Source: a virus (Duplodnaviria; Heunggongvirae; Uroviricota; Caudoviricetes). Taken from it: 64,000 nucleotides of DNA. The position numbers and the translations under genes were made by a program. Every line of letters begins with the position of its first letter. Positions within the stretch are counted from its first letter, which is position 1. The stretch lies in IMG/VR virus record IMGVR_UViG_3300013902_000267; one strand, written 5' to 3'. The notes under the pieces were generated by a model, which saw nothing but the letters and a program-made list of their open reading frames with translations, had not been told where the DNA came from and did not search any database. Positions 7,334 through 34,475 of the stretch are shown here, piece by piece.

Positions 7334-9541
7334 TTATTCATTTCTATTTATATTATATTTATCTAAAAGATAATTTGCAAAATCTTCTTTTTCCTATGTT
7401 TTATTATTAAATTTAAAAAAGAAATTAAGATTAAGACCTACTTTTCCACCTTGCAAATAATTAGTTGGCCAAAGTCTTACCATCTTATTCATTACATATT
7501 CCTCTATTGTCTTGAATCTATAATGATTTAACCTTGCGTTTTCCCATGTTTTTTCATTATCTCTTAATTTTATAGAATTTATACATAACTAACCTATTGT
7601 ATTTACTGTAACTATTTTTTTACTATATGGCGAATCATATAAAATGCCATGAGGTGAATTAAATTCTATATTATCTACACATGTTTTAAATATTATTTTA
7701 GTTTGAGTAGACCAATTTTCTGTAATAGGTAGATAATCTGTAAATCTTTTAATTGAATAATTATTATCTTCTACTTTTAATATTTCTGAATCTGTAAACT
7801 ATCTCCAGCAAACTCTTATTGTATTAATTCCTCTATCATTAAACATATCATTAGATAAAAATTCATGTATATCATTACAATCTAATTCTAAAAATTCATC
7901 AATATCGAAATATGCGATCCAATCATATTTGTCTTTGTATATATTATAGCAATCTGTATATGATGGAATCTAAACCAATTCTTTCCCTCTCTAATCTTTT
8001 AATATTACATATCCAGAATTTATATAATCAGATATTACATCTTCAAAATGTTCGCCATCAATATCATTGTTATCATATAAAACAATATTATCAAATCCTA
8101 TTGATTTATGATGTTCAACAAATTCTCTTATATAATTATTTTCCATTTTTCCTATACAGCATAATAAGATCTTTCCTGTATATTTTTTAGGTTTATTATA
8201 TAAATTCAAATGATTTAATTTTACTGGGCATACATCAATTAATTTCTACAAATCAATATCATATGTTGAATCATAGTTATTCTTTAATTTCAATAAATCA
8301 TCTTCTGTTGTTTCTTCTGTTACTAAATATGAATCATATAATGGTTTATGAATAGATAAAAAGAAATCTTCGAATTTAAAGTCCTATCCTATATTTTTAC
8401 CTATACTAATCCATATATTTGGAATCCTATATGCTTCTGAAATAATCAACCCATGTAAACTTTCTGAAACAATAAATTCACATTCTTCTATATTTTTTAT
8501 TATATCTTTCCAATCATTATATTTTGTAAAATCTATTATTAATATATCTTCATTATCTTTAAATTTATTTAATATATATGATTTAATATGTGAATGATGC
8601 GGAATAATTCCCAACTTATATTTTTTCATTACATATGGTTGATAATAATATGGAAATAATAATGCTGGATCCCCATAAACTTTTGGGCAATTTATATTTA
8701 ATTCCTATAAGTAATCCCTTGTTTTGGGACCTCTCACTGCATATATTTTATTTGGTTTATTTTTTAAATTATGTTTATATAAGAAACCACTCCCCCATAT
8801 TTTTGTAAAATCATCTATATATTCATCACATAAAATAGAGCCTATGAATATATAATTTATTTTCTTATCTTTCTTATTATATTTTTTATGTTGTTTACCT
8901 GTAAGTTCTTTTAAAAAAGAAAAATTTATATCATCACCAAAGTTATGTGGTATTACTGTATTATCAGAATTTAAAAATGCCCAACTATTTAAATATATAG
9001 TATCATTCTCGTTCTTCATAATTTCGCTATTTAATTCTTTTTGAAATAATGAATTCGAAGTATTATTTTTCTTCAATACATTTACAACTTCAGTATTAAT
9101 TTTATTTTCTTTTTCCTTTTTTATTTTATCTTTAAACTATTTACTATTAATAATAACATTTTTATTTTTAATAATATCCTATTTCTCTTTAAGAATTTCC
9201 TAAATTGGTTTTACTTTAGGCTCAATAGTAGGTATCATGATATTGGAAACATAAGCATACGTTTCCTTATTTGTTTTTATATTGTTAATATTAATTTTTG
9301 TATTATTTCCTTTATGTTCTTTTTCTTTATTATCATAATTAACAAATGTTTTCATATTAGGTTTCGTAACATTACCTAATATGTACTTATCAGGATTATA
9401 TGTACCTTGTAACTAATTTATATTATTAGTCACTGATGAGAATCCGTCCTAATTATAATAAACACCAGCATTCTAGGCGTAACTTCTATTTTTTGAAAAA
9501 TATGCTTTATCTATCTTCTATACATTTTTAATTGGAAACAT
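7334..9541 (-). CDS. 735-aa fusion: unknown N-term, polysaccharide pyruvyl transferase, GT-A glycosyltransferase (GT92/GT2-like)
   Basis: Single frame across many TAGs; GDDINF, FIGSIL, AVRGPKT, GDPALL, SESLHG (pyruvyl transferase); IGKMENNYIREFVEHH..GFDNIVLYDN and FDIDEF (GT). Confidence 0.8.
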
Positions 9542-9665
9542 ACAGATATAAAATTATTTTAATATATTTATTTTAAATAGAAAAGGATAGACTATTCTCT
9601 ACGAACAATCTATCCTTAATTTAATATGAAAAACCCGAAATTAAGTTTTGAACTTAAGTTTATAT

Positions 9666-10925
9666 TTACTTATTCACTGCAAGAATTGCACATGAACTAT
9701 TAACAAGGAGATTTACATTTCCCTTAAATTCATTAATAGTTCTCTTATCTGTATAACTCATTGCAGATCGCATATAATCAATCATATTATCAGTCCACTG
9801 TTTTACTGTTTCTTTCACTGTAATATACTTTGTACAACCTTCTGAAGTCTTTGTTTTTGCTGATGGATTAATTAACTTTTGAGCCTTCTTTGTGGACATT
9901 CCATAAGACTCTTTTGTAATAGTCTTCATATCCTTAATAAAGTCTTTTTTCTGTTTTTCAAGTTCATCTGAAATAACAGGATTTTCAGAATTTAATCCTT
10001 CCCAAATATTAAGAATGTCTTCTACTCCATTATTAATAATACCATCTTTATAAAAATAAAGATAATGATTATTATAACTTTCAATATTCAATGGTGCTGT
10101 TGACTCAAGAAGTCCTGTAAACAAACTTCCAATCATTACATAATCTGCACCAAGACCTAATGCTTTAATTACATCTGCATAACCACGAATACCACCATCT
10201 GCAACAAGGTAAGGATGTGACTTAAAATAACTTGTTGGATTATCATTTTCATCAAATCCCTTGTCAGCAATATTCTTATAATATTTACACTTATCAATCA
10301 ATGATGCAATAGGATAATGAATTGAAGAATTTGAAGTAGTTAAACACACGGATCCGCTTCCTATAGACAGTCTGATATAGTCCACGCGAGCATGCTTACA
10401 AATCCACTCATAAGTTTCAGGATTAGCGATATTACCTGTCATTACAATGAGTTTATAATTACTATTATCAGCAATATCCTTTGCCTTATTAATAGTCTCA
10501 TACAAACTTTCCATATGGCCATTTGCTAAATCCACACAAATCCTATATGTTCGATTATATCCAGAAAATATTTCATCAGGTGACATCATCTTATGATCAA
10601 CAAAAACATATTCAAACTCTTTCAATGACAATGCAACCCAATCGCCATCATCCATAAATGGTTTAATATATTCCATACGTTTTACAATATCACCATTTGG
10701 ATCTGCTCCAATATTTCGTGGAATCATTGGATGAATCTTATTCAACTTCCAAATGTTAATATTATATTCATTCGTAATAGTAGACATAGGTGCAGTAAAC
10801 AGTGGTAGATACTTATCATCTTCCACAAATGGATTACATTCCTTTCTACTCTTAATTGAACTAATAACAGCAGGTTCAATTGTCAAATCATTATATGAAT
10901 ACTTTGTATCTTTAATAATCGGCAT
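9666..10925 (-). CDS. IMP dehydrogenase / GMP reductase family enzyme
   Basis: TAPMST, GNIA, SIGSGSVCLT catalytic Cys loop, ADGGIR, ALGLGADYVMIG, SYGMS; no CBS insert; no in-frame TAG. Confidence 0.85.
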   Translation of the reverse strand: MPIIKDTKYSYNDLTIEPAVISSIKSRKECNPFVEDDKYLPLFTAPMSTITNEYNINIWKLNKIHPMIPRNIGADPNGDIVKRMEYIKPFMDDGDWVALSLKEFEYVFVDHKMMSPDEIFSGYNRTYRICVDLANGHMESLYETINKAKDIADNSNYKLIVMTGNIANPETYEWICKHARVDYIRLSIGSGSVCLTTSNSSIHYPIASLIDKCKYYKNIADKGFDENDNPTSYFKSHPYLVADGGIRGYADVIKALGLGADYVMIGSLFTGLLESTAPLNIESYNNHYLYFYKDGIINNGVEDILNIWEGLNSENPVISDELEKQKKDFIKDMKTITKESYGMSTKKAQKLINPSAKTKTSEGCTKYITVKETVKQWTDNMIDYMRSAMSYTDKRTINEFKGNVNLLVNSSCAILAVNK

Positions 10926-12377: not shown

Positions 12378-12400
12378 ATTAACAATACAAAGATACATAT
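12378..12400 (-). promoter_or_regulatory. Bacteroidetes sigmaA-type early promoter cassette (-7 TAnnTTTG)
   Basis: ATATGTATCTTTGTATTGTTAAT, identical at 26384-26406 and 53859-53881. Confidence 0.8.
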
Positions 12401-22413: not shown

Positions 22414-22995
22414 ATGGATAAGAATACATTAAAAAAACAGATGAACCAAATTCATGATATAAATTTATCAAAGCGAATTGGTGAAGTTTGTGAGTGTCCA
22501 GTATGTGGCAATTCTTTCGTTAAGAAACATATTAAACATGTTTATTGTGGAGGACGTGATAATCAGACATGTAAGAATGCTTATAATAATTTCATGCGTT
22601 ATAATACTGTTTATGATTTTGGGAGATTTGTTAATTTGAAAAATAAAAATAAAAATAATAATGTCACTACTAAATCAACAAAATCATTTAATAAGTATAT
22701 GTCTTTTTCATTTGGCAATGATTCTTCATTATCAGATAAGTCGAATAAAGAGTTAAATGAAGTTAAAGATACTTCTAAGTATGTTAGTGAAACTTTAAGT
22801 GTAGATAAACAAGTATTAAAGAATATTGAGTCTTCATTAGAAACTCGTATTAGAGAAAAAATTGAAAAAGAGTTTGAATATGAATATAAGAATAAATTAG
22901 AGAAAGAATATAATAAAGGTTATAATAAAGCATGTGCTAACTATGAAGAAGCAAAAAATGGGAAAATGCCGAATTTAATGGTTGTGTTTAAATAA
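22414..22995 (+). CDS. Zn-finger hypothetical protein
   Basis: CPVCG..YCGG..TC; TATCTTTG promoter at 22377-22384. Confidence 0.7.
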   Translation: MDKNTLKKQMNQIHDINLSKRIGEVCECPVCGNSFVKKHIKHVYCGGRDNQTCKNAYNNFMRYNTVYDFGRFVNLKNKNKNNNVTTKSTKSFNKYMSFSFGNDSSLSDKSNKELNEVKDTSKYVSETLSVDKQVLKNIESSLETRIREKIEKEFEYEYKNKLEKEYNKGYNKACANYEEAKNGKMPNLMVVFK

Positions 22996-23001
22996 TGATG
23001 T

Positions 23002-23304
23002 ATGTTGTTATTTTATAGATTTGATGATATTCCAAAAAATGAGAGGTCTTCAATTTTTTGGAGAGGCGAAGAAAAAATAGGTGAAGAAAAAGGAGTATCT
23101 GTTTATGAAGCTCATAAAAATATAAATGGAACATATTCACCAGTTTTACCTAATCCTATAAATGAAACAGGGTTTGATACTTTTATTCATTTAATTAGAT
23201 ATTATTCCGGTAACAAATATTTGGTAACAGGAGATTTATTAGATGACAGAGGAACAGATGGTGAACCATTAATTAAGAACGTTAAAATAATTAAGAAGTT
23301 ATGA
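23002..23304 (+). CDS. Hypothetical protein
   Basis: 100-aa ORF, ATGA overlap with next gene. Confidence 0.7.
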   Translation: MLLFYRFDDIPKNERSSIFWRGEEKIGEEKGVSVYEAHKNINGTYSPVLPNPINETGFDTFIHLIRYYSGNKYLVTGDLLDDRGTDGEPLIKNVKIIKKL

Positions 23305-23528
23305 ATAAAGAAGAACGTTATAAGAAGATAAATGATTTAATTCCACAAATCGAGTTAATTAAAGATACTATTTATAATATCGTATGGGAACCTCAGGAAG
23401 GTGATTTTGATAATCATTTCGACAATCTTCCAAAAGCAGAGAAGGTTGCTATCATAGGAATATTGAATGATGCAAATAGACTTAGTAATTCAGTTGCATG
23501 TTATGCACATTGGTTTGAACAAAAGTAA
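23301..23528 (+). CDS. Hypothetical protein
   Basis: 75-aa ORF. Confidence 0.7.
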   Translation: MNKEERYKKINDLIPQIELIKDTIYNIVWEPQEGDFDNHFDNLPKAEKVAIIGILNDANRLSNSVACYAHWFEQK

Positions 23529-23585
23529 ACATTTTCAATAATTTAGACTATAATTTATAGATTTGTTGTTAATTAGATAAAGTTT

Positions 23586-24326
23586 ATGAAAAATAATAAA
23601 GAAATTATTAAGGAATTTTATCCATATGTAAGTGATGCACTTAAGAAAATGGATAATGTTGATATAGAAACATTGCAGAATACATATAATATTCTTAGTA
23701 ATATGAATGATTATTCTGTTGATGAAGTTATTAATGCTCAAAAAATAGTTAAAGATATTATTAATAAAACTATTGATGAGTTTAAAGATAAATTTATTAA
23801 GAATGTTTCATTTGATGATATTATTTTATATGCGCAGGTATCAAAATCTGTATTGAAAAATAATAATACAAAGAAGAATTTTATTAATAATACGGGTGTA
23901 ACTATTGATACAAAAAATATAGTAGGAACTAAATCATTTGAAGCTATTCAACATGATTTGTTTGGTGGTGAACCAACTGTATATAAGAAGAAAAAGAAGT
24001 TTTCAAAAATTAATGATAAAGTTACACTTTATTCAAATATTCCTTATTTAACTCTTAAGAAAAATGAGCATTTATATCGTATAGCTACACTTATTCCTTA
24101 TAATAAGCAAGTAGTAGATGATAATGGTAAGAAAATAAAGGGATTAATCTATGGAATGCTTCCAACTATGTATTTTGTAACAGATAATAAGAAACGAGAT
24201 TTTAGAATTGCTCGTAATAATTATATTAATATTGTAAGGTCTCAGAATGAAAAGTTGGTTAAGCATTATGAAGAAACTTACAATATTACGTTAGGTTATG
24301 ATGTTTCAGCTAAAATGATTAAGTAA
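23586..24326 (+). CDS. Hypothetical protein
   Basis: 246-aa ORF. Confidence 0.7.
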   Translation: MKNNKEIIKEFYPYVSDALKKMDNVDIETLQNTYNILSNMNDYSVDEVINAQKIVKDIINKTIDEFKDKFIKNVSFDDIILYAQVSKSVLKNNNTKKNFINNTGVTIDTKNIVGTKSFEAIQHDLFGGEPTVYKKKKKFSKINDKVTLYSNIPYLTLKKNEHLYRIATLIPYNKQVVDDNGKKIKGLIYGMLPTMYFVTDNKKRDFRIARNNYINIVRSQNEKLVKHYEETYNITLGYDVSAKMIK

Positions 24327-24328
24327 TT

Positions 24329-24883
24329 ATGGTAGCAACTTATATAGCATTTACATTTTTTGTATGTTTAGTATTATTATGTTTTACTATAATACTTTTT
24401 ATATGTATATCAGTATATGATAATATGGTACAATATAATGATCCAGGTCCATTTAAGAAATGGTTTTCAAGAATTATAATTTTTATTATATGCTATTTTT
24501 TTATAAATTGGACACATTATTTAATGTTTAAACCTATACGATTTATAAGTAGTGATGAACCTGTTTTAATAACAGGAAATAATGCTACATATAGATATTA
24601 TAATTATTTTCAAACAGATTCTGATGATGTAATTGTACATAAACCGATCTATATGAAAGGTATAATATATAAGGATAAAGTATCTAATTGTAGTGATAAT
24701 GATAATAATGTTAATCATCATGATATTTGTATAAAGTCAGAAGATGGCAAACATATTGAAGAAGATTATCATTATAATCCTCAAATAGAAGATTTACCTT
24801 TTGAAGAATATAAGAAACGTGTAGGATTTAAAAAGGTATTTTTTCCAGAGGAACGATATTATTTAATTTATTTTAGCAAATAA
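24329..24883 (+). CDS. Membrane protein
   Basis: Two N-terminal hydrophobic segments. Confidence 0.7.
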   Translation: MVATYIAFTFFVCLVLLCFTIILFICISVYDNMVQYNDPGPFKKWFSRIIIFIICYFFINWTHYLMFKPIRFISSDEPVLITGNNATYRYYNYFQTDSDDVIVHKPIYMKGIIYKDKVSNCSDNDNNVNHHDICIKSEDGKHIEEDYHYNPQIEDLPFEEYKKRVGFKKVFFPEERYYLIYFSK

Positions 24884-24889
24884 AAGTTT

Positions 24890-25264
24890 ATGATGAATAT
24901 ATTTTTAATTTTACATTTTATACCCGTAATTGTAGGACTATATATTTTTTATATAATACCTTATTTTACATTGAAAAAGAATTCATCATTATATGATTAT
25001 TTTAATAATTTGGAGTTTATATCAATTCCATCTTTAACTATATTAACAATAGTACCAATATTTAATTATATTATATTGTTTAAGTTAGTTGAAGAGTATA
25101 GTAATGATTCTGAAAAAGAAGAATGTTTAAATCAAACAGTATCTAATATATATGATTTCTTTAAAGAATTTTTTACAGCTTTATGGATGTTATTTGTATG
25201 GTTGTTTGGTCTTAAGTATGTATTTAGATTTTTTAATAAAATATTAACACTTAAAATAAAGTAA
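24890..25264 (+). CDS. Membrane protein
   Basis: Three hydrophobic segments. Confidence 0.65.
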   Translation: MMNIFLILHFIPVIVGLYIFYIIPYFTLKKNSSLYDYFNNLEFISIPSLTILTIVPIFNYIILFKLVEEYSNDSEKEECLNQTVSNIYDFFKEFFTALWMLFVWLFGLKYVFRFFNKILTLKIK

Positions 25265-25270
25265 TTAAAA

Positions 25271-25543
25271 ATGGAATTAACAAAGGAATATCTTTTAGAT
25301 CATGGATATGAAACAAATCATCCTGATCGTGTTTTGTGTCGTTTTTATAAGACTAATAATGAATCTCCTGAGTGGCGAGTTAGTGTAGAACAGGAATATT
25401 TTCCATTGAGTAATAAACTTACATTCAATATTAATTGTTGGAAGTGTAATGAGAGTGGTGCTATTATTAAGCGTTCTTCCATAGGATATGCTACAACAGT
25501 TGAAGAGTTGAATAATGTTATTGCTCTATGTGGAATCGAGTAA
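25271..25543 (+). CDS. Hypothetical protein
   Basis: 90-aa ORF. Confidence 0.7.
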   Translation: MELTKEYLLDHGYETNHPDRVLCRFYKTNNESPEWRVSVEQEYFPLSNKLTFNINCWKCNESGAIIKRSSIGYATTVEELNNVIALCGIE

Positions 25544-25620
25544 TATTTAATATAAAGAATTTATGGTTTTGGTATTTAATAAATTATTATACCAAAACAT
25601 ATTTCAATAAATTTAAGAAT

Positions 25621-26361
25621 ATGTTTAAACCGTATATTAAAGATGATAGAAAATTAACAGCTAAGAATCATATAGAAGAGATGGAAAATTCTTTTCACAC
25701 TATGATTCAAACGTCTATTAGAGATTCTGTTGTATATATAGATGATGATAATGTTTTAGATAAAAGAAATATTATTGTAGAAGATATAAAGACAGAAGAT
25801 GCAGTATTTAAGTATGGAGAAGATAAACATTTATGTGTATTGAATTTTTCAAGCTATAAATATCCAGGTGGAGGTTTCATTAAAGGTGCGATAGCTCAAG
25901 AAGAAGCATTATGTCATGCAAGTGATTTATATAATGTAATCTCCGATGAAAAATTCAATACATATTATGAACATAATCGACAAAATACTAACGGCGGATT
26001 ATATAAGAATTTTGCTATCTATTCTCCAAATATTATTTTTAATAGAGTTGCTGATAATTTTATTTCTGTAGATGTAATTACATGCCCAGCACCAAATCTT
26101 TCACATTATGAAGGACATATTTATTATGCGATGAAAGCTATGAATGATAGAATAAAATTTATTCTTGATATTGCAGAGAAACATAAACAAAAGAATTTGG
26201 TTCTTGGTGCATTTGGATGCGGAGTATTTAAGAATGATCCTCAATTTGTTGCTGAAGTATTTAAGGAATTATTGGAGTCTTCTAAATATCATTTTGAATC
26301 CATTATATTCGCAATACCGGGAGGGATTAATTATAAGAAATTTAAAGAAGTTTTTTCTTAA
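25621..26361 (+). CDS. TIGR02452 / bacterial PARG-type macrodomain ADP-ribose glycohydrolase
   Basis: LNFSSYKYPGGGFIKGAIAQEEALC (GGG-x-QEE), VITCPAPN, LVLGAFGCGVF; start at MFKPY preferred over TGT/TGG-overlapping 25528. Confidence 0.85.
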   Translation: MFKPYIKDDRKLTAKNHIEEMENSFHTMIQTSIRDSVVYIDDDNVLDKRNIIVEDIKTEDAVFKYGEDKHLCVLNFSSYKYPGGGFIKGAIAQEEALCHASDLYNVISDEKFNTYYEHNRQNTNGGLYKNFAIYSPNIIFNRVADNFISVDVITCPAPNLSHYEGHIYYAMKAMNDRIKFILDIAEKHKQKNLVLGAFGCGVFKNDPQFVAEVFKELLESSKYHFESIIFAIPGGINYKKFKEVFS

Positions 26362-26436
26362 ATATTTTTTTATTTAAAATAAAATATGTATCTTTGTATT
26401 GTTAATAAAATAATGAACAATTAAAATAACAAAGAT

Positions 26437-26658
26437 ATGAATAAGTCTCTTAAAATACAAATAACACTTCTTGTAGTCATTCTTACAGTAGGAATAATTA
26501 TAGTTAACAACATTAAATCTAATGTTAACTATATTAATGAACCTTGTCCTCTTTGTGGTTCATCTGAGGTTCTTGATTTTGGTTATGATAATATGAATGG
26601 TCAAGAACATGCTCATTGTGTTACTTGTGAAAGAGACTTCTACATTGATGTAGATTAA
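26437..26658 (+). CDS. Membrane-anchored Zn-ribbon protein
   Basis: N-terminal TM, CPLCGS..CVTC; 23-bp promoter cassette at 26384. Confidence 0.7.
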   Translation: MNKSLKIQITLLVVILTVGIIIVNNIKSNVNYINEPCPLCGSSEVLDFGYDNMNGQEHAHCVTCERDFYIDVD

Positions 26659-26768
26659 AAAGTTCCTACTGTTTTTTATAATGGTTAAAGAGTATTAGAG
26701 AATATTCTTTAACCATTTTCTTTTATATATATAAACAATTATTTAATTATTTAATATAAAATATAGAG

Positions 26769-27092
26769 ATGATAAATTTTAAAAAGAAACATGTTGAACG
26801 GACATATTTTTCTGTTATAATGTCATGGGTATATACAGGATATAAATATGATTCTGTTTCTGATGCAACAAATAATTTAAGAAAAGCAATAGAATATATA
26901 GAAAACAATAAATCTGATTTATATTTTGATGAAATTATATCATCTGGATTAGGCTCAATAGCATCAGGAAATTATACAGATACTATTATTAGACCATATC
27001 TTATAGTAAGGAGAAATTATTGGGATGATATGTTTAAAACAGAACATGAAAAAAATATATATAAACAAATAATAAATTTAACAATACCTTAA
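26769..27092 (+). CDS. Hypothetical protein
   Basis: 107-aa ORF. Confidence 0.7.
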   Translation: MINFKKKHVERTYFSVIMSWVYTGYKYDSVSDATNNLRKAIEYIENNKSDLYFDEIISSGLGSIASGNYTDTIIRPYLIVRRNYWDDMFKTEHEKNIYKQIINLTIP

Positions 27093-27096
27093 AAAT

Positions 27097-27315
27097 ATGA
27101 TTTATGAAATGAATGTTAAAGAAGAACCAGATATTTTTAATGAATTAAAAAAATATCTTCAAAATACATATAAACTTTCTGTTGTTGAATCTATTAATTT
27201 AATAGGTAAAATAGAAAATTTAATTAGAAAAGAAACCGATAAAATTATAAAAAATAGAAAACCATTTGAAATTGATTTTAATAAAATTGATTTAGATGAT
27301 ATTTTAGATGTTTAA
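27097..27315 (+). CDS. Hypothetical protein
   Basis: 72-aa ORF. Confidence 0.65.
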   Translation: MIYEMNVKEEPDIFNELKKYLQNTYKLSVVESINLIGKIENLIRKETDKIIKNRKPFEIDFNKIDLDDILDV

Positions 27316-27335
27316 AAATAATTAATTGTTAACAA

Positions 27336-27806
27336 ATGAGTTTATATAAATATCCAAGTATACATGGTTTGAAGGATATTGCAATGATTTATAATGATTC
27401 TGAATGGGATAATGCAAAACTTAAAGTGTGGGATCCTGAATATCAAAGAGAATATAATATATCATTTACAGGTTCTACAAGACCAACTGAAACTGAACCA
27501 GGTATAGTAAGTTTCAATATATCAAAAGTAAAAGACGAAAAATCTGCTGATGAAAAATCAATAGATATTTATTTAGATAAAAGATTTCCTAATATATCTA
27601 AATTAGAGAGAAACAAATATGAATTGATTTTTAGAGCAGGTGTTGAATATGGAAAGAATGTAAGTAAAAAAGATTTACTTAAAGAATTATTTAAATCACC
27701 ATGTGAAAAATGTGGTAGTTATATGATGTCAGATAATTGTATTTGTAATAAATTATATAACTATTGTGATTTTATAGAAGAAATAAAGAAAAGGATAGAG
27801 AAATAA
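27336..27806 (+). CDS. Hypothetical protein with C-terminal Cys cluster
   Basis: 156-aa ORF; CEKC..C.C..C. Confidence 0.7.
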   Translation: MSLYKYPSIHGLKDIAMIYNDSEWDNAKLKVWDPEYQREYNISFTGSTRPTETEPGIVSFNISKVKDEKSADEKSIDIYLDKRFPNISKLERNKYELIFRAGVEYGKNVSKKDLLKELFKSPCEKCGSYMMSDNCICNKLYNYCDFIEEIKKRIEK

Positions 27807-27831
27807 GAATCTCTATCCTTTATTATTTTAT

Positions 27832-28404
27832 TTAATATTCATCATCGTCATCCCATTCATCGTCAGAATCATCATAATCTTCCTCTTCATCATCAAAATT
27901 AGAATCAGAAAGATAAATTTCTTCTATAACTACTTGATTAACTTTGAATACCATAAGTCCTTCTGAAAATTCAAGTTCAATATCAATTTCACCATCTTCA
28001 TTTGCAGGGAATATTTGAATACTTTCATCTTGTTTTAATTCAATTTCAGGTTTACAATAGGCAATATCAAAAATACCTATTGTACCAGAATCTACATCAT
28101 ATTTTTGATTTGTCATAGAATCATATGTACCATCGCCATATTGAGTTCCTTGAATAATACCTATAACTTCCTCATCATTTTCAAGAATTCCATCAGGATA
28201 TTTCTTTGCACCCCATACATTATCATAAATATCTTCTGTTAAACAATAACATGGATCACCAATAACAAGCGATTTTACATTTGTTAATGTTGCTGAATAA
28301 CTACCACTTGTTTGCGTATATTTCTCATTAATTGATTTCTTTACAGATTTTGATACTGATTTCATTATACTTTCATATAATGATTTCTTTTGTTTATTAT
28401 TCAT
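27832..28404 (-). CDS. LYESIM-tagged protein with DUF4241-like core and acidic tail
   Basis: N-term QKKSLYESIMKSVSKSVKKSINE; LVIGDPCY, YGDGTY, VDSGTIGI. Confidence 0.75.
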   Translation of the reverse strand: MNNKQKKSLYESIMKSVSKSVKKSINEKYTQTSGSYSATLTNVKSLVIGDPCYCLTEDIYDNVWGAKKYPDGILENDEEVIGIIQGTQYGDGTYDSMTNQKYDVDSGTIGIFDIAYCKPEIELKQDESIQIFPANEDGEIDIELEFSEGLMVFKVNQVVIEEIYLSDSNFDDEEEDYDDSDDEWDDDDEY

Positions 28405-28519
28405 AATGTTATGTAAATTAAAAAAATTATTTTTAGTATTTATCTTTTAACAAAGATACATAAATTTTTTTAAATAAAAAAGAGATGTAATTTAATTATT
28501 ACATCTCTTAAATTATTAA

Positions 28520-28822
28520 TTATCCATCATATCCGTATTTACCGAATACATGAACAATTTCACCGCTTTTAGTTGTATAAGATTTATCATAAGATTCTAG
28601 ATCATAATCACCGAAGTAATCATCATATGATTTATATCTCCAGCTATCTTCTGTAATATCTTCCTCTGATATAGAATCTTTTGAAACTAATTTATTATGA
28701 TCTCTATCAAGAACATATGTTCCATTTTTCCATCCATTATATTCATCATCTGATGCAAATGTCAATGAATGTGTAGAACTTGAGTTAGTTTCAAATACAC
28801 TTTTCCTTACTTGAATTTTCAT
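28520..28822 (-). CDS. FETNSSSTH-tag protein 4
   Basis: MKIQVRKSVFETNSSSTHSL. Confidence 0.85.
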   Translation of the reverse strand: MKIQVRKSVFETNSSSTHSLTFASDDEYNGWKNGTYVLDRDHNKLVSKDSISEEDITEDSWRYKSYDDYFGDYDLESYDKSYTTKSGEIVHVFGKYGYDG

Positions 28823-28840
28823 TATATATTATTATATATT

Positions 28841-29404
28841 TTAATTACTCTTATAGTATTCCCATGATTTTCCAAAATTTGGACAATCCAACTCTTCATC
28901 ACTATTATCATTACCTGTTGATACATAACTATTATAATCAAACAAATAATTCATAAGTTTTTTATCATTACTTATAACATCTTCGAGAAAATCACCTACT
29001 TCATTTCCATGATCTATATAACCACTATCTTCTTCATCATCATTATTCATAAATTTAATATAAGTATATTCACTACCATCATCATATTTATGAACTTTAA
29101 CTTTCATATTAGCAGCATATGGAAATAGTGCTTTAATATTATGTTTTGCAAGAATATCTGTAATTGATTTAATTGCATTATTTACTTTATCAATATTATT
29201 CCAATAACAACTTGTAATTGCTTCCCATAGATATTCTGCTTTAGTAGCAGTGTCAAAATGAATATCAAAATCCCATCCAAATTCGCCTTTACCAAATATT
29301 ACTTTATCAGGAAATTCATTAATATCAGATTTCTTAATAATGGAAATAGAATGTGTTGAACTTGAATTTGTTTCAAATACACTACGTCTAACTTGTACTT
29401 TCAT
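28841..29404 (-). CDS. FETNSSSTH-tag protein 3
   Basis: MKVQVRRSVFETNSSSTHSI. Confidence 0.85.
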   Translation of the reverse strand: MKVQVRRSVFETNSSSTHSISIIKKSDINEFPDKVIFGKGEFGWDFDIHFDTATKAEYLWEAITSCYWNNIDKVNNAIKSITDILAKHNIKALFPYAANMKVKVHKYDDGSEYTYIKFMNNDDEEDSGYIDHGNEVGDFLEDVISNDKKLMNYLFDYNSYVSTGNDNSDEELDCPNFGKSWEYYKSN

Positions 29405-29428
29405 TTTATTTTATAAAATTAATAATTA

Positions 29429-30094
29429 TTAAATAATATAAATCTTTGGTTTATAATAAGGTGCATAAGCTTCATCGGCATAAGTAATAGTATTATTATC
29501 ATCCATAATATTCCAAAAATATTCATTGAATTTTTCTACTGTTAACCAACCACCATTTTCACCAATATTTTCAAAAAATTTTTTATTTGTATCTGTATTT
29601 TTTGTAAATTCAACATATGAACCATATTCAAGTTGATTCTTAACATCTTGAATATCATACCCATGTTGTTTTGCAATCTTCTTTATATACTCTACAAACT
29701 TCTTATATACTTCTGTATCTTCTAACCAATCATCATGATTATCCTCAAAATAATGGTTTCTATATTCAGCTCTATTATAATCTTCAATATAATATGCATT
29801 ATTATTTAATTCCATTGCAATATATTGAAGTTTAGCAACCCAATTATTAATGATATAATAAATATTAGTCATTTCATCACCATTTTCGAAATCAATACCA
29901 CGAAGAATAAATGTATGTTCTATAATATAATCCTTTGGATTAAATATACCACAGTCCATATTATCCTTATATTGCTCAAAAATAGCTTTATATACAATAT
30001 CTTTTACATCATTAATTGTTCCATGTGTAATTTGTAAAGAATGTGTTGAACTTGAGTTCGTTTCAAACACCCCTCTTCTAATTTGTACTTTCAT
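29429..30094 (-). CDS. FETNSSSTH-tag protein 2
   Basis: MKVQIRRGVFETNSSSTHSL; TAATG overlap with upstream gene. Confidence 0.85.
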   Translation of the reverse strand: MKVQIRRGVFETNSSSTHSLQITHGTINDVKDIVYKAIFEQYKDNMDCGIFNPKDYIIEHTFILRGIDFENGDEMTNIYYIINNWVAKLQYIAMELNNNAYYIEDYNRAEYRNHYFEDNHDDWLEDTEVYKKFVEYIKKIAKQHGYDIQDVKNQLEYGSYVEFTKNTDTNKKFFENIGENGGWLTVEKFNEYFWNIMDDNNTITYADEAYAPYYKPKIYII

Positions 30095-30594
30095 TAATCT
30101 GGTTCTATATAAATTTTTGTATGTTCATGATTTAAATCTTTATCGTAATTGAAATAATCCCTATCAAATATGTCAACTTTTGATTCATCATTAAAAATAT
30201 ATTCTAACAATAATTGCTCAAAGTCTTCATCTTTTTCATCAAATAGGTCATTAAATACATCTTCATACCCATAGCTATAATTATCATATTCTCCCGTTTC
30301 TGAAATAAGGAATACACAATTAATATCATATTTAGATAATACTTTTTCAATGCGATATTTAGTAGACATAAAATGAGATAGATTATCACCAAATGTCATA
30401 TAGTCAAATAAGTTATCTAATCTATCTTGAAAATGATTACCTTTATCTCTTTCTCGCCAAGGTAAACCAAATTTAAGTGTAGTTCCTGCATATAATTTAA
30501 GAATTTTATCATCTACAGGTTTTGTACATATAGTTAATGTATGTGTTGAACTTGAATTAGTTTCAAATACACTATGCCTTATTTGAATTTTCAT
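30094..30594 (-). CDS. FETNSSSTH-tag protein 1
   Basis: MKIQIRHSVFETNSSSTHTL. Confidence 0.85.
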   Translation of the reverse strand: MKIQIRHSVFETNSSSTHTLTICTKPVDDKILKLYAGTTLKFGLPWRERDKGNHFQDRLDNLFDYMTFGDNLSHFMSTKYRIEKVLSKYDINCVFLISETGEYDNYSYGYEDVFNDLFDEKDEDFEQLLLEYIFNDESKVDIFDRDYFNYDKDLNHEHTKIYIEPD

Positions 30595-30617
30595 AATTTT
30601 CCTATTGTTTTATATTA

Positions 30618-31502
30618 TTACTTATTATATTTGTTTCTAATAAATTGAAACATTTCATCCATAGTCTTATCACCTATAGGGAATCTTTCTTTAGAAATTG
30701 AATTCTTTGCAAATTCACCCTTTACTAAATCAATATAAAATGTATAACCACCATCATCTCCCATGTAGAATTCATTCCATTCATCATCGGACATAATACG
30801 TTTTACATCAAGTTGCTTAATTGCTAGATTATCAAAACTTAATACTTTAAACTTCTCCGTAATTTCCTTAAGATTATCAAAGATATATTTACGATTTGTT
30901 TCAATCATATCATTATGTTCCTTATGGAAATTAACTCCTCGTTGTAAATCTTTATATCCAAGGAGAAGAACTTTAAGATTATGATTTGCCAACTTATTAA
31001 TGTCATCTTCAGATAAAATTCCTACAATAGTATGAAGAACTGTATTAGGAATACTATTCATTTTCTGGATAAGTTCATCAGATGGTTTTACCAACGAAAC
31101 ACCAATACCATATACGAGTTTATTATCAGACCAATCCTTTAATTTATCATAATTATCAAAGAATTGTTTTTGATTTACTGTAATATTAGCAAATACTTTC
31201 TTCGATTTAAGAAAATTAAGGAACTTATCAAGATCAGGGTGATCAAGGTCATTACCATTCAATGCAATTTCTGTATATGGATGAAGTGTATTTATAAATG
31301 GATATGTAAACAAGTCACCATGTTTCCCATGTGGCGAACATCCTTCATAACAAAACGCACAGCCTATATTACACTTATCTGTTAATTTACAGTCTATATT
31401 CTCACTGTATGCAGGAATAAACTCATCATCATTTGTACGACGAATTTTTGTTCCATCACCCAAAATTGTTACGATATAATTACCATTCTTATAACTTGGC
31501 AT
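30618..31502 (-). CDS. Radical SAM enzyme, 294 aa
   Basis: CNIGCAFC (CxxxCxxC), EIALNGN (GGE-like position), ANITVN, GIGVS; no Cys-rich SPASM domain. Confidence 0.88.
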   Translation of the reverse strand: MPSYKNGNYIVTILGDGTKIRRTNDDEFIPAYSENIDCKLTDKCNIGCAFCYEGCSPHGKHGDLFTYPFINTLHPYTEIALNGNDLDHPDLDKFLNFLKSKKVFANITVNQKQFFDNYDKLKDWSDNKLVYGIGVSLVKPSDELIQKMNSIPNTVLHTIVGILSEDDINKLANHNLKVLLLGYKDLQRGVNFHKEHNDMIETNRKYIFDNLKEITEKFKVLSFDNLAIKQLDVKRIMSDDEWNEFYMGDDGGYTFYIDLVKGEFAKNSISKERFPIGDKTMDEMFQFIRNKYNK

Positions 31503-31631
31503 AATTTCTTTATTTTAAAAAATTAATAAATTTAAATTTAATATCACGAAGATACATAATTTGTTTATATATAAAAAAGAAAATAGAGAATATCTAACAT
31601 TAATTAGTAAATATTCTCTATTTTAAAAAAT

Positions 31632-32129
31632 TTATAATTCTATTATTTCTAATTTATTATAAGGTATTATTCCATTATAAAAATATGTTGGATCTATTTC
31701 ATCTTCAGATTCTTCATCATATATGTTGTTTTGATCTAAAGAAAGTTTATTTAAATCAATATCAGATGTTTTAATTTTAAATACAATAATTTCTAATTCT
31801 TTTTCATATCGATCTTCATATTCTTCAGCAAACTCTTCAAAATCATCGGAACATTCCAAATATGATTCCGCAACATATTCATCTGTTGCTAAAAAAACAC
31901 CATGACTTATATTTTCATATGGCGTATTTTCATAATTCCAAAATCGTTTCTTTGGTATTTTTGCACCTAACCCATTTTTCTTTATTGAACGCAAATAACA
32001 AGATGGAGTTGCATGATAAAAATATTCAGGTATATTATAATTGATTGTTTCATTAATTGATTTCTTTACAGATTTAGAAATAGATTTTATTATATTTTCA
32101 TATAATGTTTTCTTTTGTATAGAATTCAT
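31632..32129 (-). CDS. LYESIM-tagged ADP-ribosyltransferase-fold protein (Tpt1/KptA-like)
   Basis: N-term tag QKKTLYENIIKSISKSVKKSINE; FYHATP..SIKKNGL, GVFLATD..A, YNGIIP; TATAAATA upstream. Confidence 0.55.
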   Translation of the reverse strand: MNSIQKKTLYENIIKSISKSVKKSINETINYNIPEYFYHATPSCYLRSIKKNGLGAKIPKKRFWNYENTPYENISHGVFLATDEYVAESYLECSDDFEEFAEEYEDRYEKELEIIVFKIKTSDIDLNKLSLDQNNIYDEESEDEIDPTYFYNGIIPYNKLEIIEL

Positions 32130-32274
32130 AATTTTACATAAATTAAATTTTATTTTTATATTTATATGATGATATACAATGTAAATTTATAATAAATAAT
32201 ACATTAAATAAGACATTTTTATAATTATAGAATATTTAATAATAGGTAAGGTAGAATATTAAAAGATTTAAATT

Positions 32275-32562
32275 ATGACGACATTTATATATATTATATT
32301 TTTATGTTTTTATATAGCATTTGGAATAACAATATTTGGAATTTGTTATCGGTATAACTTTTTAAATATGAGAGATGAATATATAAGAGATAAACGTGCT
32401 AATTCAGAAAATGAATCTGTATTTTTAACAATAACATTTTGGCCGTTTTTACTTATTATTATTTTATTTATTTGTATACCTAAAAGGATTATAGAATCAT
32501 TAATTAAAAATATTGATGAAGAATTAAAATAGATAATAAATTACATAAAAATAATAAAGTAA
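32275..32562 (+). CDS. Membrane protein
   Basis: Two TM segments; TAG at 32530 read through to TAA 32562 (end uncertain). Confidence 0.6.
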
Positions 32563-32578
32563 CTAATAGTATTAATTT

Positions 32579-32878
32579 ATGATACAAAATAAAATGATAA
32601 CTTTATCTAAAAGTTATGAATATATAGATTATTATTGCGAGTTTGTTAAATATAAGAATAAAGTATTTAAAATTATTGTAAAATCAACAGGTACAAGAAT
32701 TGCAGCATATATATTTATAATCAATAAATATGGAATATCAGAGATAGCAGAAGGTTCAGATTTTGAAGAAAATATCAGGCATTTTGATATTAAAGAATCT
32801 ACAAGTAGCGATATAAAACATAAATATATATTAAAACAACTCAAATATGCTAAGGATTTTATTACTAAGATATTTTAA
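32579..32878 (+). CDS. Hypothetical protein
   Basis: 99-aa ORF. Confidence 0.65.
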   Translation: MIQNKMITLSKSYEYIDYYCEFVKYKNKVFKIIVKSTGTRIAAYIFIINKYGISEIAEGSDFEENIRHFDIKESTSSDIKHKYILKQLKYAKDFITKIF

Positions 32879-32906
32879 TAAATATTTAAAGACTTAGTAA
32901 TTAACG

Positions 32907-33170
32907 ATGAATCCATTAACATATTTGATTTCATTTTTATAGAATATATTTTATATAATAGAAGGTTACAGTAAATGGCTATTTGATATTGTAACATTCA
33001 AGGAAAATCGATTATCAAAAAAGCGAATGGCAATCTGTAATAAATGTGAACATAATAAACATGGAATATGTGAGTTATGTGGATGTATTCTTAAAGCAAA
33101 AACAAGAGTAGATTTTATATTAGATAATAATGGAATAACGATAGACGGATGTCCAAAAAGGAAATGGTAA
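32907..33170 (+). CDS. 87-aa Cys-rich protein (CxxC..CxxCGC..CP..W), one TAG
   Basis: ICNKCEH..ICELCGCILKAKTR..GCPKRKW; absent from ORF track. Confidence 0.7.
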
Positions 33171-33228
33171 TTAAACTATTTCCTTTTTTCTTTATATAAT
33201 AATATATGTAAAAATAGAATTATTTAAA

Positions 33229-33726
33229 ATGAAAGATATATCAACAGATATTAAGAGAGAAATGAATGAAATACAAGATAGGATAGGTGCATTTCATGAT
33301 ACCGGAGTAACAGATGATGGTATGATGAAAACTAAACCTTCTATAACCATATGTGTTGATTTTGATGGTACAATGGTAAAGCATGAATATCCTAATATTG
33401 GAGAAGAAGCAGAAGGTTGTATCGAAACATTGAAAAGGTGGATAAATGATTATAACGTAGGTATTATTTTGGATACCATGAGATCTGATGAAACTTTAGA
33501 TGAAGCTGTTAAATGGTGTAAAGAAAATGGTATTAAACTTTATGGAATAAGTAAGGATCCAACACAAGAAAAATGGACAAATTCACCGAAGGCATATGCT
33601 CCATTTTCTATTGATGACAGGAATGTCGGATGTCCATTAGTATATGGAAAATCAAAACGACCATATGTGGATTGGAAAAAGATTGTAGAAATTTTTGAAC
33701 CGGTTATTAAAATGTTTGTGGAATGA
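33229..33726 (+). CDS. HAD-superfamily hydrolase (BT0820-like)
   Basis: ICVDFDGTMV, IILDTMRS, SIDDRNVG. Confidence 0.8.
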   Translation: MKDISTDIKREMNEIQDRIGAFHDTGVTDDGMMKTKPSITICVDFDGTMVKHEYPNIGEEAEGCIETLKRWINDYNVGIILDTMRSDETLDEAVKWCKENGIKLYGISKDPTQEKWTNSPKAYAPFSIDDRNVGCPLVYGKSKRPYVDWKKIVEIFEPVIKMFVE

Positions 33727-34121
33727 TAAAGTTTAAAAAAGAAAAGTCAAATAAAAAATATATAGAAGTTATTCCTATTGAATACAATATGTATGAATTT
33801 CTTCATAATATGAACAGTTATAAACATATAAATTTATTTGATGTTATTACGAAATCAACTGATACTGATATAAAGAGATTCATTAAAGAACACCCTATTA
33901 TTGATAACATTATTAATAATAGAAATAATAGAAATAAATTAACTATTAAAAGAACTATATTACCTATAAACAGTGTATGTGAATTTTCCGAGATAGAAAA
34001 ATTCACATGTGTTGGCGATAAACCTATATATTTCTTTAAGGCTACATTTTTACAACAAGAATATGATGCTATATATTTAACTGATGAAAATCTTTTTGAA
34101 TTGTTTAATTTACAAGAATAA
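33723..34121 (+). CDS. Hypothetical protein
   Basis: 132-aa ORF, starts MIKFKK. Confidence 0.7.
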   Translation: MIKFKKEKSNKKYIEVIPIEYNMYEFLHNMNSYKHINLFDVITKSTDTDIKRFIKEHPIIDNIINNRNNRNKLTIKRTILPINSVCEFSEIEKFTCVGDKPIYFFKATFLQQEYDAIYLTDENLFELFNLQE

Positions 34122-34124
34122 ATT

Positions 34125-34475
34125 ATGATTAAGTTTAAAGATAATAATGATAATTTCTTGAGAGTTACTATAATATCACCTGTCACTTATGAATTAATAT
34201 CTTTATTAGATAAAGAAAATGTTGATATAAGTGCAGTGTATAATTACAAGGATTTAAATAGAATTATTAAAGAACATGATTGTATCATGGATGAACTTAG
34301 GTATTATATGTGTAATAGGATGAATCAATTAATAAATTATAAAAATATAGTTAAAGTTCAGAATATTACAAAAATTAATTGTCTAGGAATTGATGATACC
34401 TATTTTCTATATATAGACGGATGTTATTATCTTACGAATGATATAAATTTTATACAAAAATATATAAAGAGATAA
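34125..34475 (+). CDS. Hypothetical protein, possibly paralogous to the upstream gene
   Basis: 116-aa ORF, starts MIKFKD; similar layout ending YLT(D/N). Confidence 0.7.
   Translation: MIKFKDNNDNFLRVTIISPVTYELISLLDKENVDISAVYNYKDLNRIIKEHDCIMDELRYYMCNRMNQLINYKNIVKVQNITKINCLGIDDTYFLYIDGCYYLTNDINFIQKYIKR

Follow-up and report, generated by a model that had tools for sequence, protein, structure and literature searches.

A radical-SAM enzyme and its N-terminally tagged partner proteins, a widespread module of Lak megaphages and other phages

On the minus strand of a 64,000-nucleotide stretch of phage DNA (IMG/VR virus record IMGVR_UViG_3300013902_000267, the whole of which is called the window in what follows) lie five closely spaced open reading frames (ORFs), the first encoding a radical S-adenosylmethionine (SAM) enzyme (rSAM) and the other four encoding small proteins of 166, 221, 187 and 100 aa, designated W166, W221, W187 and W100, that all start with MK[IV]Q[IV]R[HRK][SG]VFETNSSSTH. 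The presence of this tag in four genes of one operon is not due to chance, and the co-occurrence of tag and enzyme, suggested as a check by the original prediction made from the sequence alone, is found in both directions across hundreds of phage loci. The module formed by the two is real, widespread and undescribed. In the reading favored here, to which a probability of about 0.45 is given, the enzyme docks the tag, referred to as the arm where its structural role is meant, and performs radical chemistry on its Asn-Ser-Ser-Ser-x-His segment; the contact between enzyme and arm, the arm as substrate, the chemistry and even the direction of action are inferred.

The shared tag and its coupling to one enzyme

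Positions 28400–31600 of the window are 99.4% identical to Prevotella phages Lak-B1, B3, B6 and B9, while the identity to Lak-A and Lak-C is about 73%, and the locus is assigned by sequence to a Lak megaphage genome of roughly 550 kb and of the Lak-B type. The coordinates, lengths and strand of the five ORFs, all confirmed as originally predicted, are as follows, together with the arms (first 20 codons) of the tagged genes.

30618..31502, minus strand: radical-SAM enzyme, 294 aa, first gene of the operon (identified by phrog_16999, an AlphaFold2 (AF2) model and Foldseek)
30094..30594, minus strand: W166, tagged protein, 166 aa, found in the Lak clade only, compared with family A by hhalign
29429..30094, minus strand: W221, tagged protein, 221 aa, found in the Lak clade only, its start overlapping the W166 stop by one base (TAATG)
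28841..29404, minus strand: W187, tagged protein, 187 aa, a full-length member of family A (phrog_28997)
28520..28822, minus strand: W100, tagged protein, 100 aa, a member of family B
30535..30594, minus strand: N-terminal arm of W166
30035..30094, minus strand: N-terminal arm of W221
29345..29404, minus strand: N-terminal arm of W187, residues 1–12 being of low confidence in the AF2 model
28763..28822, minus strand: N-terminal arm of W100

Past the tag, only two more invariant columns are common to the four window proteins. In the Lak-B1 genome (547,991 bp), a DNA pattern encoding E-T-N-S-S-S-x-H is matched at four places, all of them in the operon, while the reversed control gives 0 occurrences. 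The codons of the tag differ synonymously among the four genes (Arg, AGA/CGT/AGG; Thr, ACG/ACA/ACT; Asn, AAC/AAT; S16, TCA/TCT), which bears out what had been noticed earlier, and among paralogs of one phage, the codon identity at the invariant tag core is 0.547, compared with 0.469 expected from local codon usage. The comparison implies that selection keeps the peptide and not the DNA.

The full consensus of the arm spans 20 residues, M-K-x-Q-I-R-x-G-V-F-E-T-N-S-S-S-x-H-S-L. Among 208 distinct tags from enzyme-anchored loci, R6, E11, N13, S14 and S15 are conserved at 100%, followed by H18 (99%), S16 (97%), T12 (95%) and F10 (94%), whereas position 17 is free; G8 reaches 60%, the tag having no invariant Gly. 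The variable residues are shared more often among paralogs of one phage (0.616) than between phages (0.435), and F10 is replaced by Trp in every tag of two phages. Both the within-genome likeness and the F10-to-W switch fit adaptation to one common receptor, and in the enzyme sequence no position diagnostic for F10-to-W tags was found, with only two such phages available for comparison. A 30-column profile of the tag, run against 1.84 billion proteins, matched 7,378 cluster representatives (637 at E ≤ 1e-10). These matches fall nearly all at residues 1–30, and the two double matches that were inspected look like merged neighboring genes.

Coupling was assessed from either side. With a degenerate DNA pattern for VFETNSSSTH, a tag-anchored set was assembled from at least 119 IMG/VR stretches and three further loci, which contains 216 motif-bearing ORFs, with one to six tagged genes per locus. 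In 161 of these ORFs, residue 9 or 10 is the first of the motif, and for most of the others the gene caller had begun at an upstream start codon. An enzyme homologue is present in 84 of 120 motif-bearing loci, usually adjacent and on the same strand, most other loci having too little flank. Where the flank is ample, five tag loci have no adjacent enzyme; three of the five carry the enzyme elsewhere on the contig, and the remaining two come from contigs with a completeness of 8% and 15%. Tagged proteins without the rSAM, named in the original prediction as a finding that would tell against it, were thus looked for and seen in no near-complete contig.

From the side of the enzyme, each of the 80 IMG/VR phage loci that were anchored on it contains one or more tagged genes, which share its strand and lie no further than about 2 kb away. 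On bacterial contigs from metagenome-assembled genomes (MAGs) and isolates, mostly gut prophage or phage bins, the strict motif is found in 67 of 80 enzyme-anchored loci and a variant with NSSA or NSSI in three more; in eight of the remaining ten, the sequence to one side of the enzyme gene is short or absent, which makes them uninformative, and two fully flanked loci (L266 and L269) have no tagged gene at all. Across the 160 enzyme-anchored loci, there is no third conserved gene beside the pair: if an ORF running antisense to the rSAM gene is left aside, the next family occurs in 21. This commonest other neighbor is a P-loop protein of 301 aa, whose GxxGxGKS motif may point to a kinase-like nature (e.g., L176:4952-5857). 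The tagged genes themselves, when sorted by the protein behind the tag (the cargo), belong to family A in 92 and to family B in 87 of the 144 enzyme loci that have them, with both families in 63 and other cargo only in 25. Since neither cargo family is universal, it is the tag, not one protein family, that is the constant companion of the enzyme. Of the earlier interpretation, the part in which one rSAM is functionally tied to a portable tag on different cargo proteins therefore holds, and the part in which the tag is bound or modified belongs with the mechanism discussed below.

The module also occurs in cultured phages. By tblastn against GenBank phages, the enzyme is found in Microcystis phages Ma-LMM01 and MaMV, Salmonella phage Arash and Rhodothermus phage RM378, and in Ma-LMM01 the family-A tagged protein gp130 is encoded two genes upstream of the enzyme gp128. 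In Arash, a 476-aa ORF annotated as a ‘methyltransferase’, gp146c (L124:3491-4921, OQ632216.1), consists of a family-A domain fused to the N-terminus of the enzyme. The fusion keeps the tag QIRYGFATNSSSSHS, with R, F, T, N, S, S, S and H all retained, as well as the GW, DH and GNDN motifs of family A, and it provides separate evidence that the enzyme and family A work together physically. With Lak megaphages, many gut phages and prophages, and cultured phages of Microcystis, Salmonella and Rhodothermus as its hosts, the enzyme–tag pair is among the more widespread large-phage modules that have no known function. The cultured phages and the natural fusion protein make the system directly testable, and Arash gp146c would be a convenient model.

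The enzyme and the tagged proteins

The cluster motif of the enzyme, CNIGCAFC, corresponds to C44-x3-C48-x2-C51. Its match to the Pfam family Radical_SAM (PF04055) has an E-value of 0.29 and 11.7 bits, below the gathering cut-off of 29.5, while one homologue (L002) carries PF04055 in precomputed annotation. It also matches phrog_16999 (‘Fe-S oxidoreductase’) with an E-value of 2.2e-36 over residues 28–271, and 5,601 homologues were found in a large protein collection. In an alignment of 17 diverse homologues (A3), the sole conserved cysteines are C44, C48 and C51, present in 17 of 17; no cysteines of auxiliary SPASM or twitch clusters are conserved, and beyond residue 55 the window enzyme is devoid of Cys. 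An N-terminal segment (Y4, N6, G17, T18 and R21) is conserved as strongly as the core. The A3 profile weakly matches solved rSAM enzymes, namely GDGT-MAS (6.6e-4), PqqE, SkfB and QueE, and the profile alignment places the ‘A-i-G-G-g-D-p’ of the enzyme, a GGE-like SAM-binding motif, against the GGEP of GDGT-MAS and PqqE.

The AF2 model of the enzyme, with a predicted local distance difference test score (pLDDT) of 90.5, has a three-stranded sheet at residues 3–23, followed by a partial TIM barrel. When compared with the PDB by Foldseek, it is closest to SkfB (6efn; E 4e-7, template modeling (TM) score 0.59), with CteB, DesII, SuiB, BlsE, EpeE, ChlB and anSMEcpe among the further close structures; there are 28 matches at E ≤ 1e-3, and all those listed are radical-SAM enzymes. 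The nearest Swiss-Prot models are AhbD, MftC, SkfB, AlbA, MoaA and PqqE. Judged from its sequence and model, the enzyme is a true but divergent member of the radical-SAM superfamily with a single predicted [4Fe-4S] cluster, and it is nearest to the peptide-modifying branch, yet without the auxiliary clusters of that branch. In some relatives, the rSAM gene contains an intein (PF14890/PF07591, with an HNH endonuclease ORF), as in L159:6454-7756, from a 553-kb Lak-like IMG/VR contig, in P0128, P0130 and P0132, and in L069:3741-4580. The insertion point lies exactly before C51 (...NILVHN|CYEGC), which means that this Fe-S ligand is also the +1 nucleophile of splicing.

Among the tagged proteins, W187 is the window representative of family A, matching phrog_28997 with an E-value of 2.6e-20 over residues 2–168 and having 320 homologues with 35–45% identity over the whole length. 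In the family alignment (A2), the motifs GEFGW, KA.YLY, [YF][VI]DH and TGNDN and a C-terminal YKGN are spread along the chain. The AF2 model of W187 has a pLDDT of 91.6, but residues 1–12 fall below 50, and the arm appears in the model to be free of the folded client domain. The fold appears to have no solved relative: the model has no match in the PDB at E ≤ 1e-3 by Foldseek, the best VIA-align result among 48,161 PDB representatives is only Z 2.8 with a root-mean-square deviation (rmsd) of 3.0 Å over 68 aligned residues, and the A2 profile finds no PDB sequence below E 0.09. In the AFDB clusters, BFVD and ESM Atlas, the model matches only uncharacterized phage proteins. One ESM Atlas cluster of 261-aa phage proteins, annotated as Tad2-like (PF11195, Thoeris anti-defense 2), matches the family-A model with a TM score of 0.56 and an rmsd of 3.7 Å over 134 residues, and it may represent a Tad2 sponge domain to which a domain resembling family A has been fused. 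PF11195 did not match two tagged proteins of similar size (261 and 265 aa), and a search for longer, fused forms of W187 found none, which is weak evidence.

Family B, to which W100 belongs, consists of the tag, a C..EY.KW..GE motif, an acidic and variable middle, and a C-terminal YTTPSGD..VAFGYYGYDG hairpin. W166 and W221 are restricted to the Lak clade, and together with W100 they match phrog_28997 only or mainly through the tag; neither phrog_28997 nor phrog_16999 has a characterized function. In Lak-A/C-type phages (L135, L136 and L159, at about 7800–10400), five tagged genes lie 3′ of the enzyme gene, encoding 165, 223, 118, 186 and 101 aa, of which the 118-aa gene is missing in Lak-B.

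Whether the four proteins share a common fold was examined by profile comparison with the tag (first 24 residues) removed. Families A and B show no similarity by hhalign (probability 0.2%), whereas W166 aligns with family A over 127 collinear columns with a probability of 40% and an E-value of 2.9e-4. In W166, the DH and GNDN residues of family A are replaced and the tag is intact; it is probably a decayed family-A paralog. Because the tag is perfect in a protein that has lost the family-A polar residues, its role appears to be independent of the cargo's own motifs. W221 shows no significant similarity to other tagged proteins beyond the tag, with a probability of 0.4% against family A. The cargo set thus seems to comprise two or more families that are unrelated, together with one or two A-type paralogs that have decayed but retain a perfect tag. 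The dissimilarity of the four proteins in the original prediction is therefore partly right, its statement that they diverge completely after the tag being too strong in view of W166. Clustering of the cargo from residue 25 onward gives 17 groups.

No family in Pfam, NCBIfam or PADLOC was found for any tagged window protein, and none in Pfam for ten further cargo proteins (202–274 aa). None of the five window proteins matches an anti-phage defense model of PADLOC-DB at E ≤ 0.01. Motif-based readings as pyruvoyl proteins, N-terminal nucleophile (Ntn)-type self-processing proteins, SurE-like, metallophosphatase-like or PP-loop-like proteins are backed by no fold or profile match.

Transcriptional setting of the operon

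Three further features, on the same strand as the operon, surround it.

31547..31558, minus strand: promoter-like motif TATGTATCTTCG (includes TAnnTT[CT]G), about 45 nt upstream of the rSAM start, its function being predicted
28480..28509, minus strand: terminator-like hairpin with a 12-pair stem and a T-run, directly 3′ of the last operon gene
31573..31620, minus strand: AT-rich hairpin TAGAGAATAT...ATATTCTCTA with a T-run, 3′ of the preceding gene, read from the sequence

The last of these hairpins has a G+C content below the threshold of the terminator scan and was found by direct reading; it would mark the upstream boundary of the transcription unit. The 12-mer TATGTATCTTCG, with up to one mismatch, has 10 copies in the window compared with 2.0 expected. 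In the form TATGTATCTT[TC]G, it occurs at 12388, 12710, 22373, 26385, 28451, 31547, 43709, 49243, 49944 and 53860, and copies other than that of the operon also lie just upstream of genes, for example, the one at 28451-28462(-). The 12-mer resembles the Bacteroidetes −7-like TAnnTTTG element, and its copies probably constitute a class of host-type phage promoters.

Lak phages read TAG as glutamine in part of their genes. The five operon genes contain no TAG codon, and the same holds for a whole contiguous block of about 25 genes (22414-34475), so that the TAG-free state noted in the original prediction is a property of the block and not of the operon alone. Genes flanking the block carry up to 15 TAG codons. 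The TAG-free block fits early, pre-recoding expression, and taken together with the recurrent Bacteroidetes-type promoter-like motif, it makes early expression of the operon a reasonable assumption. Both genes that flank the operon, 27832-28404(-) and 31632-32129(-), start with a KK.LYE.I.KS.SKSVKKSINE leader; the 165-aa flanking protein has a faint match to RNA 2′-phosphotransferase (Tpt1/KptA; NF002012, E 0.1), and the 190-aa flanking protein is very acidic and matches phrog_20074.

Possible roles of the arm and comparison with known systems

According to the favored reading, the arm would stick out from the folded client and be captured by the enzyme, probably through strand pairing with the invariant three-stranded sheet at the enzyme's N-terminus, and the Asn-Ser-Ser-Ser-x-His loop would be set over the SAM/cluster site. 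The 5′-deoxyadenosyl radical would then take a hydrogen from one loop residue and a covalent change would remain, possibly the conversion of Ser to an aldehyde by chemistry of the DesII type or of the anaerobic sulfatase-maturating enzyme (anSME) type, or a cross-link. The clients would need this modification for activity, and in Lak-B, one enzyme would serve four clients from the same early transcript. Such a maturase–client relationship is suggested by the variable number of clients, the short invariant arm, its apparent freedom from the domain, the peptide-acting relatives of the enzyme, and the fact that nothing else is conserved nearby. Net oxidation is within the capacity of single-cluster rSAM enzymes, DesII being an example. 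More tentative is the broader proposal that the enzyme installs a previously unknown modification or protein-derived cofactor on the tag, by which a single maturase would activate a varying repertoire of early proteins that have nothing else in common; if so, thousands of phage lineages, ranging from megaphages of the gut to cyanophages, would possess a general and undescribed system of protein activation.

Several points weigh against modification of the arm. The enzyme lacks the SPASM/twitch clusters that nearly all known peptide-modifying rSAM enzymes use, and a recognizable PqqD-like leader-binding domain is missing from it. The leaders of known maturases vary, and an invariant 9-residue core resembles a loop for catalysis or cofactor binding as much as it does a substrate. 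Conserved polar, enzyme-like residues are present in family A itself (H18, D131, H132, N165, D166 and N167 in A2), and a fusion such as that in Arash typically joins two subunits or two steps of a pathway more than it joins an enzyme to what it modifies. Both the enzyme–arm contact and the modification are inferred, and a predicted complex of the enzyme (A3) with a [4Fe-4S] cluster, SAM and W187 (A2) scored 0.16 against a mark of 0.32, a value that speaks neither for nor against the contact.

The foremost alternative, somewhat less likely than modification, is that the arm is a docking device and not a substrate. It would be a plug or strand that assembles the tagged proteins onto the enzyme and may lend Asn, Ser and His to the active site, while the tagged proteins would be interchangeable subunits or adaptors that bring the real substrate, be it a nucleotide, a nucleic acid, a small molecule or a host protein. 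The Arash fusion of family A and enzyme, with tag and motifs kept, fits such a hetero-oligomer, which the original prediction had already offered as its alternative, at least as well as it fits modification; yet a mere tether should relax once the two are fused, and the tag residues listed above for Arash have been retained. The enzyme-like polar residues conserved along the whole of family A also speak for docking, but each of the two cargo families is missing from part of the loci, enzyme-like motifs are absent from many clients, which are short and acidic, and W166 keeps the tag after the loss of the family-A motifs. In addition, docking is consistent with the frequent occurrence of overlapping, translationally coupled genes, with the invariance of both the arm and the N-terminal sheet of the enzyme, as for a fixed interface, with the location of the module among DNA replication and repair genes in several phages, and with an enzyme that has neither auxiliary clusters nor the recognition element (RRE) of ribosomally synthesized and post-translationally modified peptide (RiPP) systems.

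Extreme paralogy, in which all tagged proteins would descend from one ancestral fold and the tag would be their own catalytic or ligand motif, acting in the same pathway as the enzyme without contact, is improbable. The profile comparison of A and B without the first 24 residues argues against it, as does a tag that stays invariant while the remainder drifts past recognition and that is unplaced in the family-A model, not packed in a site; furthermore, the near-absolute adjacency to one enzyme family, together with the fusion, points to direct interplay. Paralogy would account for the collinearity of W166 with family A, for the same three motifs in the same order in W221, albeit with an insignificant score, and for S14–S16 being TCA-AGT-TCA in all four Lak genes. 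It is also in keeping with the similar hydrophobic or aromatic C-terminal strand, next to the chain end, in which many families end, a likeness that suggests a shared minimal core where the post-tag strand pairs with the C-terminal strand. Highly improbable is a RiPP-like scheme, in which the N-terminus would be a leader and the enzyme would modify a core elsewhere (e.g., the C-terminal YGYDG or YKGN) in a product that is cleaved and released: the structural neighbors of the enzyme are RiPP maturases and the extreme C-termini of families A and B are conserved and Tyr/Gly-rich, but no conserved protease, transporter or RRE gene lies beside the pair in the 160 enzyme-anchored loci, the clients have 90–265 aa with family A forming a well-folded domain, and C-termini that vary by family next to an invariant N-terminal core are the reverse of the usual leader/core pattern.

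The consequences differ between the two foremost readings. If the tag is modified, the module would represent a new class of radical-SAM maturation, acting on whole proteins at a Ser-rich N-terminal motif and without SPASM clusters, and it would offer a handle on the function of dozens of ‘hypothetical’ early phage proteins. If the arm serves assembly, it would provide a modular means of endowing one radical enzyme with several specificities.

A description of the module was not found in the literature on the tag motif, on the tag with radical SAM, or on phage radical SAM, and the library searches likewise agree with the original statement that no characterized system matches. The rSAM/SPASM genes reported beside peptides with a conserved C-terminal FxSxx in vWA-MoxR systems (Kaur et al. 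2020, PMC7159879) belong to a different system. Among known systems, glycyl-radical activases and their partners (PflA/PFL, NrdG/NrdD and GrcA) are alike in that the target of a small single-cluster rSAM enzyme (about 250–300 aa), the single cluster being predicted here, is, or in the phage module would be, a short loop within a complete protein whose gene lies alongside, and such pairs also occur in large phages. However, the phage tag has no invariant Gly or RVxG, the family-A model does not have the glycyl-radical enzyme (GRE) fold, and no GRE activase is among the top structural matches listed for the phage enzyme.

The SPASM/twitch maturases (SkfB, CteB, SuiB, EpeE, PqqE and MftC) provide the best structural matches of the phage enzyme, and their substrate genes likewise adjoin the enzyme gene and encode a conserved N-terminal recognition segment. 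In contrast to them, the phage enzyme has no auxiliary-cluster cysteines and no PqqD-like RRE, its N-terminal domain being a three-stranded sheet only; its partners are proteins of 90–265 aa instead of short peptides, no protease or exporter is involved, and the conserved part is the presumed site of reaction. The closest parallel in organization is that of anSMEs (AtsB, ChuR and anSMEcpe) and sulfatases, where one rSAM enzyme serves many whole, folded clients that share a short Ser-containing motif near the N-terminus, and anSMEcpe is itself a structural neighbor of the phage enzyme. Unlike the sulfatase motif, the phage tag lacks (C/S)-x-(P/A)-x-R, lies at the extreme N-terminus and is far more invariant; 14 tagged proteins that were scanned contain no sulfatase or other Pfam family, the phage enzyme has no SPASM clusters, its gene always adjoins those of the clients, and the carriers of the system are phages. 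In its way of working, the module comes closest to anSMEs with their sulfatases or to leader-guided rSAM maturases, but the features that define either system are missing from it.

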